From NCBI GenBank assembly GCA_965209085.1, contig OZ242376.1, positions 128,001 through 192,000 on the forward strand: 64,000 nucleotides of DNA, read 5' to 3'. Under the pieces are notes generated by a model. It saw nothing but the letters and a program-made list of their open reading frames with translations, had not been told where the DNA came from and ran no database searches. The DNA comes from Nitrosopumilaceae archaeon (GTDB lineage: Archaea > Thermoproteota > Nitrososphaeria > Nitrososphaerales > Nitrosopumilaceae). The translations under genes were made by a program, and so were the position numbers. Below are positions 27,737-29,853 of this stretch, piece by piece (positions within the stretch are counted from its first letter, which is position 1; the number at the start of each line of letters is the position of its first letter).

Positions 27737-28003
27737 ATTGACGTAGATGTAATTGATTTTCTTTTAATCACGATATATCCGGTCGCAGGTCTTCTTGGAA
27801 TTGAAATAATTTTTAGAATTGTAAAAGGATCTCAGTGGTTAAAATTATCAATACAAGGATTGCTCTCACTTGCTTTTGCAATTGCATATGTAGTTTTGAT
27901 TACAGCACATTGGCTCACAGCAATAGTTTTAATTGCGCTGGCTATAGCATTATTTTATCAGTCAAAAAGATCCTTGTTGCATCCTGGCAAATCTCCTTAC
28001 TAG
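27737..28003 (+). CDS. Small 3-TM membrane protein without canonical start codon
   Basis: Open frame (IDVDVIDFLLITIYPVAGLLGIE...AHWLTAIVLIALAIALFYQ...PY*) with no ATG/GTG/TTG before the first TM; start uncertain. Confidence 0.5.
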   Translation: MDVDVIDFLLITIYPVAGLLGIEIIFRIVKGSQWLKLSIQGLLSLAFAIAYVVLITAHWLTAIVLIALAIALFYQSKRSLLHPGKSPY

Positions 28004-28218
28004 TTGCGGCCAAAAATTCTACTCAAAAATCCTTTTTTTGGACCGCCGTCTCGAATTATTTTTTTTCCACCAAACTTTTTTGATCTGATTTGTGTTAATT
28101 TCACACAACGGTGATCCTCTGGCAACCTATGTTCTGTACAAAAGGGATCTTTACAGTAATTACACTCAAATGGCATATCGATCATATCTCCACAATACGC
28201 ACACGGTTTTTCAAGCAT
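28000..28218 (-). CDS. AN1-type zinc finger protein
   Basis: CxxC...CxxC...FCxxHRLPEDHxC. Confidence 0.88.
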   Translation of the reverse strand: MLEKPCAYCGDMIDMPFECNYCKDPFCTEHRLPEDHRCVKLTQIRSKKFGGKKIIRDGGPKKGFLSRIFGRN

Positions 28219-28327
28219 ATGGTTTCATTTGAATAATCTGCCTATTAAACATCTAGACCATTTTGACGTATGAGGTCACGTCATGCCTAGAATTTATGCA
28301 ATAAATAGACCGTATCCATGTGAATAC

Positions 28328-28343
28328 TTTTTAAAGGTTTCTT
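28328..28343 (-). promoter_or_regulatory. TATA box (TTTAAAAA) plus purine-rich BRE-like sequence, positioned for the recombinase only after circularisation
   Basis: In the joined-end circle the box lies at -30 to -23 from the GTG at 29640. Confidence 0.6.
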
Positions 28344-28518
28344 GCTTTTTTGTGTCATGCGGTATGGCTTTCGCTATGTGTCTGGTTCCAACCAAAAGAT
28401 AAAAGACATCTATCCATTCGGGATTTAATCCCACAACCATCTTCATCTACATGTTAAAGCTTACCGCAGTTATGCAGCCGGGGTAACATCCCCAAAGTCT
28501 AACCCGCGGTTTGTTGCT
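28340..28518 (-). ncRNA. Putative bridge/seek RNA with target- and donor-binding loops
   Basis: Hairpin 1 (28463-28510) loops UUAGACUU and UGCAUA match the MITE-B terminus; hairpin 2 (28397-28448) loops AUGGUUGU and AUGGAUA match the IS circle junction ATGGT-TAT-CCAT; transcript ends are estimates. Confidence 0.8.
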
Positions 28519-29640
28519 TTAACGATGATGTATTTCAAATTCACTCCTATCCTTTAGCATACGAAATATGATATCCAGCATCTTGGCCGCTGCTGCAACT
28601 TTGGCCTTGGATGATCCTCTCTTTTTTGCAAGACGCCGGTAAAATTCAGAAATGTTACTCTCTGATGCAAATCGGACATGTGTGGTAACAGCTTCCACCA
28701 ATGCCCACCGCATCATCCTGCTGCCTCTTTTTGTTATATGTCCGTGATGGACCACATCTGCTGAATTACGAACCGATGGGGCAAGACCCGCATATGATTT
28801 GAGTTGTTTTGGTTCAGAAAATCTCTCAACTCCATCAATCTCTGCTGCCAGTATCAATGAAATAAAATCACCTATGCCAGGTATTATCTTGAGCAACATT
28901 GCATCCTTGTTTGAACAGGATGCGTTGTGTACCTTTATGTTTGAGTCTGCAATTTTTGTATTAACGAATCCAATAGAATCCAAATATCCGTTTATACGGT
29001 AATCCTTTAGAGAACGCAGTTTTCTATTGTATGTAAGCGTAAATGTTGCTCCAAAGATCTTTATCCCTCCCTGTAATAAAATTCCATGTATTTTGTTTTT
29101 TAGAGTTGTCCTTGTCTTGACAAGACTGTCGCGATATCGTACAAGTTGCCGTTGTTCCACTATGTCCTTGTTTGAGACATGACAGAGGGATATGTATCCG
29201 CATCGTAACAGATCTGCAAGTGTTACAGCATCCCTCTTGTCGGTCTTTTTCTTGGATGCGGCGATGATTTTTGTCGCCCATGGATTTGACAATACGACAT
29301 TATAACCCATTTTATCTGTCATGTATCGATATAGACCGTACCATACGGATGAAGATTCCATTACGATTTTTGCATTTTCAGGTACGCTTGATCTGAAGAA
29401 TCGACTGATGGACTTGTTTTCATTTTCAATCCTCTCATTAAAAATCACTTTGGCTTTTTTATCCATCATTGCAACTTGAAGAAATTTCTTGTGAACGTCC
29501 ATTCCAACAAACATATTCTTCCCAGAATATGTGGTAATCTGTTTGTTTGCATTTGGATCTTTTTTAGATGATTTACGTTTCGGTGATACGGATCGTTTGA
29601 CATTCTTACAACCATCTGTGGTCTTAGAAGCTCTCTTCAC
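28519..29640 (-). CDS. IS110-family DEDD transposase/recombinase
   Basis: GMDVHK, VMESS, KTDKRDA (DEDD); IPGIG, YAGLAPSVRNSA (catalytic Ser region), TKRGSRMMRWAL; alternative start ATG 29514. Confidence 0.96.
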   Translation of the reverse strand: MKRASKTTDGCKNVKRSVSPKRKSSKKDPNANKQITTYSGKNMFVGMDVHKKFLQVAMMDKKAKVIFNERIENENKSISRFFRSSVPENAKIVMESSSVWYGLYRYMTDKMGYNVVLSNPWATKIIAASKKKTDKRDAVTLADLLRCGYISLCHVSNKDIVEQRQLVRYRDSLVKTRTTLKNKIHGILLQGGIKIFGATFTLTYNRKLRSLKDYRINGYLDSIGFVNTKIADSNIKVHNASCSNKDAMLLKIIPGIGDFISLILAAEIDGVERFSEPKQLKSYAGLAPSVRNSADVVHHGHITKRGSRMMRWALVEAVTTHVRFASESNISEFYRRLAKKRGSSKAKVAAAAKMLDIIFRMLKDRSEFEIHHR

Positions 29641-29772
29641 ATATGGTTATGCATAATCGTTCAAATTGGTCATTTTTATTCGTAAAAATTGTGAATTTGA
29701 CCCATTATGCATGAAGTCTAATGAAGATGTATGCATAAAATAACACGAGGTACTGACCTCATACATTTTGAC

Positions 29773-29853
29773 ACGTAAGTTTATGCTGTGCCTATAATTT
29801 ACACGAAAAATCAAGATCTAGGCACAAAATAAGACTGGGCGTTGACCTCATAC
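29773..29853. mobile_element. Older degenerate MITE family A copy in tandem
   Basis: 81 bp, intact right TIR TGACCTCATAC, internal tgccta/taggca; flanks ATTTTGAC/ATTTTGAT. Confidence 0.8.

Follow-up and report, generated by a model that had tools for sequence, protein, structure and literature searches.

Junction promoters are a classic route by which circle-forming insertion sequences express their transposase only when excised, and they drive the bridge RNA of the IS110 recombinases that are now used in genome engineering. To our knowledge, all described cases use bacterial sigma-70 signals. Two studies report that when bacterial IS110/IS1111 elements circularize, the junction forms a working promoter, which is presumed to transcribe tnp together with the non-coding region (PMC11187229; PMC11208160). 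Our literature search, with supplements and subscription journals outside its reach, found no description of an archaeal junction promoter. Here we analyze an archaeal element whose right end probably carries a promoter that a circle would dock on the GTG start codon of the recombinase gene, giving a leaderless recombinase message. Judged from its sequence, this would be an archaeal counterpart of a switch so far described from bacteria.

The element lies on the minus strand at positions 28313-29650 of the window, by which we mean the whole 64,000-nucleotide stretch analyzed from a Nitrosopumilaceae archaeon, and is an IS110-family, IS1111-like insertion sequence. The host is an ammonia-oxidiser-type archaeon. 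The genome contains 7 full copies of the element and about 10 partial ones, which define its ends, and 11 left and 17 right copy junctions all break at identical points. Because these junctions agree and the donor loop of the bridge RNA matches both ends, the boundaries are firm. The element proper (28316-29647) is flanked by copies of an ATA core at 28313-28315 and 29648-29650. Read along the minus strand, the right end runs ...AAGAAACC-TTTAAAAA-GTATTCACATGG and then ATA (28315..28313), and the left end runs ATA (29650..29648)-ACCATAT-GTG, with the GTG at 29640..29638. The left terminus, ACCATAT (29641-29647), was placed by the left junctions of the copies and by comparison with homologues, and the right terminus, CACATGG (28316-28322), is an inverted match to the left-end CCAT(AT)GTG. 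These terminal repeats match over 7 bp with a 2-nt insertion and are terminal, not clearly sub-terminal, when compared with the sub-terminal inverted repeats of 7 to 17 bp that we took as characteristic of the IS1111 group. The layout is that of the IS1111 group. The stop codon is 203 nt from the right terminus versus 7 nt between the left boundary of the element proper and the GTG, and a long non-coding region and its RNA lie downstream of the gene, with the right end far longer than the left.

The insertion target lies in the arm of a palindromic repeat of ~75 bp, repeat B, the left part of which occupies 29651-29719, with the remainder of the arm at 28307-28312. Seven of the 11 left junctions fall within repeat B, in either orientation, and the repeat has roughly 40 more short matches in the genome when both strands of the palindrome are counted. 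One X4 contig joins 28303 to 29720, which corresponds to a repeat A without B and the insertion sequence; it is most likely another copy of A.

The recombinase open reading frame (ORF) occupies 28519-29640 on the minus strand and encodes 373 aa from the GTG. It contains DEDD_Tnp_IS110 and Transposase_20 domains by Pfam (PF01548, E value of 7e-28, residues 45-190; PF02371, E value of 1e-21) and matches the NCBIfam profile NF033542, 'IS110 family RNA-guided transposase', at 218.6 bits against a cut-off of 140, over residues 44-366. The recombinase is a member of the IS110 family of DEDD RNA-guided transposases.

A structured non-coding RNA of the bridge/seek type lies at 28364-28523 on the minus strand. 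It begins at the stop codon and consists of two stem-loops with internal loops and a small third hairpin. Its consensus fold over 12 lineages has 26 pairs, 14 of which show compensatory changes. No Rfam family matched the region at an E value of ≤1, apart from a chance miRNA match elsewhere. In the donor loop, the sequence of the right terminus and the adjoining ATA recurs on the 3′ strand, and the 5′ strand shows complementarity to the left terminus. Ten of 12 lineages have a 3′-strand match of 7 to 8 nt, L033 has one of 6 nt, and L039 has one of 4 nt; this strand covaries with the ends through three states, ATGGATA, ATAGATA, and ATGGGTA. Complementarity of the 5′ strand to the left terminus extends over 4 to 6 nt in 9 of 11 lineages and over 3 nt in the other two. 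The target-loop strands match the flanks, and they differ between the two families of the source genome, in line with different targets. At the level of sequence, it is supported that the predicted junction is one that the element's own bridge RNA is built to recognize. The comparison also yields a set of related bridge-RNA elements from archaea, at least 13 in number, in which guide-target pairs can be read.

The right end contains a TATA-like box, TTTAAAAA (28328-28335, minus strand), which was identified by matrix and alignment and faces outward 12 nt from the right terminus. Upstream of it is a purine-rich, BRE-like stretch, AAGAAACC (28336-28343, minus strand), in which the A at 28339 corresponds to position -34. 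When the ends are joined through one ATA, the box falls at -30 to -23 from the GTG (29638-29640), because 12 + 3 + 7 = 22 nt then separate the two. In the integrated copy, ACCAATTT occupies this position by our count. The initial annotation had given the same sequence and element coordinates, with TTTAAAAA at -30 to -23 and ACCAATTT there in the integrated state, and we recovered all of them. We revised its proposal that the junction builds the promoter: a circle would only dock a ready-made promoter on the start codon, as BRE and TATA are wholly in the right end.

We scored this arrangement with a promoter weight matrix trained on gene starts of the same genome. The junction reached 6.7 bits and peaked exactly at offset 0, with a T at -1 and a G at +1, and the integrated state scored -5.4. 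Scores of 6.7 bits or more were found at 113 of 50,000 random single positions, at 146 of 20,000 random positions when offsets of ±2 were allowed, and at 138 of 1132 gene starts. Matrix matches are common in the A/T-rich element (7 per strand of ≥4 bits in 1.7 kb), so the single junction score is weak when taken alone; it is conservation across lineages that raises the junction box above chance. The matrix was seeded with TATA-like hexamers, which makes its TATA columns partly circular but does not affect the -34 position or the sharp positional peak. We also considered target repeat B as a promoter for the integrated state and rejected it, as it gave only a weak 2.4-bit match with a start at -9.

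Set against the same genome's profile, the sequence geometry is that of an archaeal BRE/TATA leaderless promoter, which has a TATA box centered at about -26/-27, a purine-rich BRE upstream, a pyrimidine/purine step at -1/+1, and the start codon at +1. The split -35/-10 arrangement of bacteria was not found: the right end holds both the BRE-like A and the TATA box, and the host belongs to the archaea. By its layout, the element is a putative junction-promoter switch but not one of the split sigma-70 type.

The host genome itself provides the reference for leaderless genes. Around the first ATG of 1132 long ORFs, TATA-like hexamers starting at -31, -30, -29, -28, and -27 number 30, 45, 74, 62, and 43, respectively, compared with a background of roughly 4 to 17 elsewhere around these starts. 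This sharp peak at -30 to -27 from the genome's own ATGs indicates that leaderless genes are common. The promoter consensus of the genome is A(-34), W(-33), and T(-29)TWWWWA(-23), with a pyrimidine at -1, and A(-34) is the strongest matrix position outside the TATA box. For an ATG followed by an ORF of at least 100 codons, the counts at matrix offsets of -1/0/+1 peak at 58/102/70, against a background of about 24. At leaderless-type positions, ATG shows an enrichment of about fourfold, and GTG is enriched weakly (14/14/12 at offsets of -2 to 0, with a baseline of about 7.5), with leaderless GTG starts being rare in the genome. GUG is described as able to start leaderless mRNAs in archaea (PMC7531240). 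That the predicted junction geometry equals the geometry of the genome's own leaderless genes is supported by these profiles.

We compared the ends of 13 lineages, consisting of the two families in the source genome and 11 loci from other Nitrososphaeria genomes. These 11 were the loci with recognizable left and right ends among 29 homologue loci (L032-L060). L043, L044, L046, and L047 were left out with a left-end motif present and the right end out of reach, L045 was left out of the end comparison as a fragment, and the 13 loci L048-L060 were left out as distant (≤36% identity) or fragmentary, with other ends. Some of the last group have a Shine-Dalgarno-like leader. A wider homologue search of contigs returned five loci, three of them Nitrososphaeria MAG fragments and two of them distant bacterial matches, which were not useful for ends.

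Conservation of spacing in homologues, a check proposed with the initial annotation, was found throughout: a TATA-like octamer lies 11 to 13 nt before the right terminus in all 13 lineages, and the matrix fits best at an offset of -1, 0, or +1 in every case. In the alignment of 12 lineages, the box forms an island of seven columns with 92 to 100% A/T, in which T(-28) and A(-27) never vary. All 11 sequences with a letter at -34 have an A there, matching the genome's matrix, which agrees with the purine-rich, BRE-like stretch that had been noted upstream of the box. The 5-nt spacer beside the box is not conserved in the same alignment (42 to 50% identity). Because the A-rich patch is on the element-strand side only, the box has an outward direction. 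Three of the 13 lineages score poorly (L035, -3.7; L040, 0.5; L042, 1.6) owing to a G or C within the box; L040 and L042 contain stop codons, and L035 looks intact. Owing to common ancestry, the 13 lineages are not independent trials, and L032 and L039 are close. Together, the geometry, the conservation, and the open frame support the reading as an archaeal-type junction switch by comparison rather than by experiment.

A/T tracts near insertion sequence ends often have architectural roles. The box could be a DNA-level recombination feature required for right-end synapsis, such as a bend or a site bound by the recombinase or by chromatin proteins of the host, with its promoter likeness being coincidental. 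Its location close to the terminus, its conservation together with the terminus, and the nearly palindromic octamer, which scores 5.7 bits on the opposite strand, are in keeping with such a role. We consider this explanation unlikely, as it does not account for the invariant A at -34, which is the BRE-like position of the genome, for a box-to-GTG spacing within ±1 nt of the leaderless geometry, or for a promoterless gene that starts 10 nt from the left boundary.

The GTG (29638-29640, minus strand) is the first possible start codon, with an in-frame TAA before it, and is the predicted +1 of the junction transcript; TAA-C(C/T)ATAT-GTG is kept in homologues. Codons 2 to 42 (29515-29637, minus strand) form an open frame for a basic N-terminal extension that lies outside the family profiles. 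We found that in 16 lineages the frame that begins at the GTG stays open, with an extension of 12 to about 90 aa, and that the lineages have the motifs K/R-x-S/R-x-SDG and ANKQI in common. The earlier suggestion that the basic 42-aa extension may be real is strengthened: an open, partly conserved frame in 16 lineages is supported, and translation would presumably begin at the GUG. Alternatively, the protein may start at Met43 (ATG, 29512-29514) from read-through transcripts, with the GTG kept as part of the terminal repeat CCAT(AT)GTG and the upstream frame left untranslated. Consistent with a Met43 start, the Pfam and NCBIfam profiles begin at residues 44-45, the SDG motif falls where the terminus is repeated in inverted form, and leaderless GTG starts are rare, as noted. 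The frame is open in the 16 lineages despite the range of extension lengths, however, and the second motif, ANKQI, is outside the hairpin described below. Furthermore, there is no promoter-like site or Shine-Dalgarno-like run upstream of Met43. An internal promoter for this start was sought in the matrix scan, and no match of ≥4 bits places a start anywhere from the left end to the Met43 ATG. We regard initiation at Met43 as quite unlikely.

With initiation at the GTG from a docked promoter as the preferred reading, the same promoter should also fire into the flanks when the element is integrated, because BRE and TATA are both wholly in the right end. The promoter could therefore be real but act mainly in the integrated state, on neighbor genes or for read-out, with no special part for the circle. 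It is complete when integrated, with a predicted start at window position 28305, and a co-directional zf-AN1 gene (28000-28218, minus strand; Pfam PF01428), which is context and not part of the element, is next downstream and begins at 28218. Among 17 right ends, we found a co-directional long ORF within 400 nt at just 4, a convergent one at 6, and neither at 7, so the promoter does not appear to be kept for neighbors, and in this role a selfish element would gain nothing from a fixed spacing to the start codon in its own left end. A mainly integrated-state role is very unlikely. Least probable of all is a box that fires inward, producing antisense RNA to the bridge RNA and to the 3′ part of the recombinase message as a brake on transposition: the plus strand scores 4.2 to 5.7 bits, with predicted starts at window positions 28357-28359, but the conserved A-rich patch is on the other side, the would-be BRE is the nonconserved spacer (42 to 50% identity), and the outward score is higher (6.7 versus 5.7).

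The left terminus and the GTG recur in inverted form as CACAGATGGTTGT (29608-29620, minus strand), which is able to pair with 29638-29650. The predicted hairpin has a free energy of -11.9 kcal/mol with 10 upstream nucleotides, versus -5.7 from the GUG onward. Hairpin cells are paired in 76% of cases in 11 lineages, versus 23 to 46% in slid controls, and one pair covaries. Transcripts entering from outside would carry the left terminus, which would pair with the inverted copy ~22 nt downstream and bury the GUG; a leaderless transcript would be made without the left-terminus arm. This fold-back layer, in which the hairpin would act on RNA, is more tentative, and the predicted hairpin could equally be a DNA-level sub-terminal repeat. 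In IS10 and IS50, terminal sequence present only in outside transcripts reportedly pairs with the start region and would block translation. The archaeal fold-back would be similar, resting on a predicted hairpin with one covarying pair.

Our model builds on the observed ends, junction geometry, conservation, leaderless geometry, RNA structure, and guide matches. According to this model, the right end carries a complete outward archaeal promoter, made up of the BRE-like A-rich patch and the TATA box 12 nt from the terminus. The integrated element would offer the recombinase gene no promoter, since the 10 nt between the left boundary and the GTG leave no room for one, and the right-end promoter would fire into flanking DNA. 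Excision as a circle would join the ends through one ATA core and place the TATA box at -30 to -23 of the GTG. TBP, TFB, and RNA polymerase would then start at or beside the G and yield a leaderless recombinase mRNA, and this transcript would continue past the gene to include the bridge RNA. Two copies in tandem would dock the promoter on the GTG in an equivalent manner. We infer circle formation, binding of TBP/TFB to the box, the start at the G, and translation from the GUG. Of 17 sequencing runs, 10 cover part of the window, all as assembled contigs and with no RNA data set among them. Four of these, compared over window positions 28200-29800, show no right-to-left back-joint, and contigs cannot show rare circles. 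Junction probes of 30 and 21 nt gave 0 matches in the genome, as did a degenerate end-core-end pattern for tandem copies or junctions in the genome and the homologue loci compared. The broader reading, in which topology gates expression across the clade, with a right-end BRE/TATA productive only on the circle, a leaderless GUG recombinase message plus bridge RNA, and silencing by fold-back, is possible rather than probable.

The closest described systems share much of this organization. Like ISEc11 and the IS1111 group in the seekRNA study (PMC11187229), the archaeal element has a DEDD recombinase, a very short left end, and short inverted repeats at its ends. As in the elements of that report, an RNA that matches target and donor comes from a long non-coding region downstream of the gene, and insertion is sequence specific (PMC11187229). 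For the ISEc11/IS1111 group, that study describes a circle with abutted ends, the junction of which activates expression, and the archaeal element is predicted to form a circle of this kind (PMC11187229). The ISEc11 junction is described as assembling a bacterial promoter, with the -35 element in one end and the -10 element in the other (PMC11187229). In contrast, the archaeal element is in an archaeal host and has the whole BRE/TATA unit in its right end; its left end gives only the initiator position and the start codon, and its message is predicted to be leaderless.

The element also resembles IS621 of the IS110 group as reported in PMC11208160, with a two-loop bridge RNA and insertion into repeated palindromic elements. 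In the loops described there, one strand matches the left side plus the core and the other is complementary to the right side, and the archaeal loops are arranged likewise (PMC11208160). A promoter is reconstituted across the core in the circular form of IS621, and in the archaeal circle a promoter would likewise act across the core (PMC11208160). The two differ in that the IS621 RNA precedes its gene, within a long left end, and the archaeal RNA comes after the gene (PMC11208160). In addition, the sigma-70 junction promoter reported for IS621 is far upstream of the coding sequence, whereas the archaeal transcript is predicted to start at the first codon, and the IS621 core is CT, whereas the archaeal core looks like ATA or TA (PMC11208160). 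If the broader, clade-wide reading is true, this would be the first TBP/TFB-dependent junction switch, one that gates a recombinase through a eukaryote-like promoter, and it would represent a natural bridge-recombinase cassette built for archaeal/eukaryote-type transcription. Compared with the bacterial systems, the same logic would have been rebuilt with archaeal signals: one end would supply the complete promoter and the opposite end the leaderless start, and read-through might be blocked by a fold-back.

The insertion sequence at 28313-29650 (minus strand) is 1.33 kb long and carries a single ORF, a recombinase gene at 28519-29640 (minus) that encodes 373 aa counted from GTG and has IS110-family domains. 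We found PF01548 at residues 45-190, as well as PF02371 (Pfam), and NCBIfam NF033542, "IS110 family RNA-guided transposase," matched residues 44-366 with 218.6 bits (cut-off, 140). Of 201 genomes sampled from the same class, 38 (the source genome included) encode relatives of the recombinase, and the relatives identified by name are Nitrososphaeria MAGs. The source genome, one contig of 1.69 Mb with 41% G+C, holds 7 near-full copies (95 to 100% identical) and about 10 partial ones. About nine fragments of 70 to 480 bp are right ends only, in which the bridge-RNA region and outward TATA box are kept and the recombinase gene is absent (for example, at 1642551-1642943, 1168577-1168961, 728323-728601, 959195-959473, 670232-670393, and 794840-794907 of the source contig, G000:C1). 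The genome also contains a second IS family, at G000:C1:1172112-1173450 (L020), with further copies near 666534, 857691, and 730168. It is 65% identical to the first in nucleotide sequence and 57% in protein, and its termini and box are the same. Copies and fragments of both families cluster at about 556 to 562 kb and 662 to 735 kb.

All 11 left junctions of the genome's copies read flank-ATA/ACCATAT-GTG. The 17 right junctions read ...TTTAAAAA-GTATT-CACATGG/ATA-flank, with point changes in a few decayed copies. The flanks are alike across copies because the element is site specific. Seven of the 11 left junctions, in either orientation, fall within an arm of B, a palindromic repeat of ~75 bp, and the consensus target is TTATGCATA/(A/C)NNTCTA(A/T)T, with insertion at the slash. 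Repeat B (29651-29719 plus 28307-28312, with about 40 more short matches in the genome) is MITE-like, ends in inverted repeats of the form AGACnnnATGCATAAT, and is flanked at this locus by a 3-bp ATT duplication. Each arm is an IS target, which recalls the insertion of bacterial IS110/IS1111 elements into REP elements or transposon ends. Three repeat layers are nested here: B is split by the IS and itself splits the ~85-bp repeat A (29720-29764 plus 28268-28306), which has at least 25 intact genomic copies. A contig of sequencing run X4 in which 28303 is joined directly to 29720 probably represents a further intact copy of A. The target loop of the second family fits a different site: the end of a repeat that spans at least 329 bp and also stands alone at C1:1361698, 1091052, and 580579. 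At the homologous locus L035 (G110:C20), a ~30-bp direct repeat lies immediately before the left end and immediately after the right-end core; it far exceeds the 3-nt core, and candidate explanations for it are a tandem target, a partial tandem copy, and a different end.

The boundaries gained independent support from the 203-nt noncoding stretch 3' of the stop codon. The fold from a 12-lineage alignment comprises two stem-loops, which have internal loops, and a small third hairpin; 14 of the 26 consensus pairs show compensatory changes. The 3' strand of the second loop equals the right terminus plus core over 7 to 8 nt in 10 of 12 lineages and covaries with the terminus among three states (ATGGATA, ATAGATA, and ATGGGTA); its 5' strand is complementary to the left terminus. 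The first-loop strands match the target flanks and differ between the genome's two families in step with their targets. This layout is the architecture of the IS1111 group, in which the bridge/seek RNA occupies a long right end and the left end is very short (PMC11208160, PMC11187229). This RNA is built to hold a sequence made up of right terminus, one ATA, and left terminus, exactly the junction proposed in the initial annotation.

That annotation held that the circle junction builds an archaeal TATA promoter for a leaderless recombinase mRNA starting at GTG (29638-29640). We found that its geometry was correct. With a single ATA joining the ends, TTTAAAAA (28328-28335) lies at -30 to -23, 22 nt before GTG; the purine-rich BRE-like stretch, AAGAAACC, sits directly upstream; and the integrated copy holds ACCAATTT where the junction would place the box. 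We then tallied the positions of TATA-like hexamers before the first ATG in 1132 long, nonoverlapping ORFs of the source genome. Counts at -31 to -27 were 30, 45, 74, 62, and 43, versus roughly 4 to 17 elsewhere, and 173 of the 1132 ORFs had a hexamer in this range. Therefore, a large share of the genome's genes are leaderless with a fixed TATA-to-ATG distance. The own-gene profile and matrix (refined on 157 sites) feature A(-34), A/T(-33), T(-29), A/T as far as -23, and a pyrimidine at -1. Scripted joining of the two ends gave a junction sequence that scored 6.7 bits, and the score peaked at offset 0 precisely, with the G of GTG at +1 and T at -1. Scores at least this high occurred at 138 of 1132 gene starts versus 113 of 50,000 random single positions. 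The integrated copy scored -5.4 at offset 0, and its best score (2.4, offset -9) came from the A/T center of repeat B. The matrix is not very specific, giving 7 hits of at least 4 bits per strand in a 1.7-kb region; none of these hits placed a start in the interval from the left end to the ATG of Met43 (29512-29514).

The predicted spacing recurred in homologues. Recognizable ends were present in 13 lineages (the genome's two families plus 11 loci of other genomes with recombinases 40 to 58% identical), which share ancestry, with L032 and L039 close, and so represent fewer than 13 independent trials. A TATA-like octamer lies 11 to 13 nt before the right terminus in these lineages, with the best offset at -1, 0, or +1. 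Junction scores were 6.7, 8.3, 9.4, 5.0, 8.0, -3.7, 7.9, 8.8, 4.8, 12.0, 0.5, 8.8, and 1.6; the three low scorers (loci L035, L040, and L042) have G or C within the box, and two of them are pseudogenes. In a 12-sequence alignment, seven box columns are 92 to 100% A/T, T(-28) and A(-27) are invariant, and so is A(-34), the strongest non-TATA-box position in the profile of the genome's own genes. Identity is only 42 to 50% in the five spacer columns that separate the box from the terminus, and sequence upstream of the A-rich patch is not conserved. The box island is maintained, as the decay of neighboring columns shows. The A-rich patch is on the element-strand side only, so the promoter faces outward.

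In all lineages, the left end consists of a stop codon (TAA or TAG), 3 to 6 nt, and GTG. The initial annotation suggested that the N-terminal extension may be real. In its favor, the GTG frame is open in 16 lineages, with 12 to about 90 codons before the catalytic domain, and the extension is basic with the common motifs K/R-x-S/R-x-SDG and ANKQI. This comparison favors translation from GTG. Counting against a GTG start are the family profiles, which begin only at residue 44 or 45, and the weak enrichment of GTG at leaderless-type positions in this genome (14, 14, and 12 at offsets -2 to 0 versus a baseline of about 7.5; for ATG, 58, 102, and 70 versus about 24). AUG, GUG, and UUG are all usable as archaeal mRNA starts with any leader length, according to a review (PMC7531240).

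A near-complement of the left terminus and its adjoining GTG (29638-29650), CACAGATGGTTGT, lies 22 nt downstream at 29608-29620. With 10 upstream nt, the predicted hairpin (-11.9 kcal/mol) buries GUG. RNA from GUG onward cannot form it and has a best predicted fold of -5.7 kcal/mol. Across 11 lineages, 76% of cells paired versus 23 to 46% in slid controls, and one pair covaries (C:G to U:A) in three related lineages. The hairpin is weak in other lineages (-1 to -8 kcal/mol), and the arms could instead be a DNA-level repeat. As a lead from these models, the hairpin would block translation of read-through transcripts. IS10 shows fold-back inhibition, to which we liken this predicted effect. In this copy, the flanking repeats contain a 5.7-bit promoter-like site at 29714 (-), with a predicted start 74 nt upstream of GTG, a possible source of read-through transcripts.

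We propose that the circle junction would dock a complete outward promoter onto a promoterless, leaderless recombinase gene. The transcript would also take in the bridge RNA 3' of the gene, as is presumed for bacterial elements in the seekRNA paper (PMC11187229). In the integrated state, the right-end promoter would start about 7 to 8 nt into the flank (28305 here). Long ORFs within 400 nt of the 17 right ends were codirectional in 4 cases, convergent in 6, and absent in 7, and the promoter seems not to be kept for neighboring genes. A codirectional 72-aa AN1-type zinc-finger gene (28000-28218, minus) lies 95 nt downstream of the IS; read-out would reach it, and it has its own TATA-like TTTAATAG at -30 to -23 of its ATG.

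Assembled contigs, a data type blind to rare circles, contained no back-joint from right end to left end, and a tandem end-to-end junction was absent from the genome and the homologue loci examined. We consider a functional circle-dependent promoter fairly probable from the sequence comparisons, and a message leaderless from GUG somewhat less so. The open-access main texts searched did not describe an archaeal junction promoter, although a prior mention elsewhere is possible; the single paper in which these topics came together deals with ISH6 target preference (PMC3942029). The proposed adaptation of the junction switch to TBP/TFB has comparative and genome-context support. The promoter, however, is not junction built: BRE and TATA are both in the right end, and therefore the junction does not assemble it from halves. 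In the bacterial -35/-10 cases, the junction unites promoter halves (PMC11187229, PMC11208160), whereas here the whole promoter lies in the right end. The archaeal junction promoter would be a variation on a switch known from bacterial elements.
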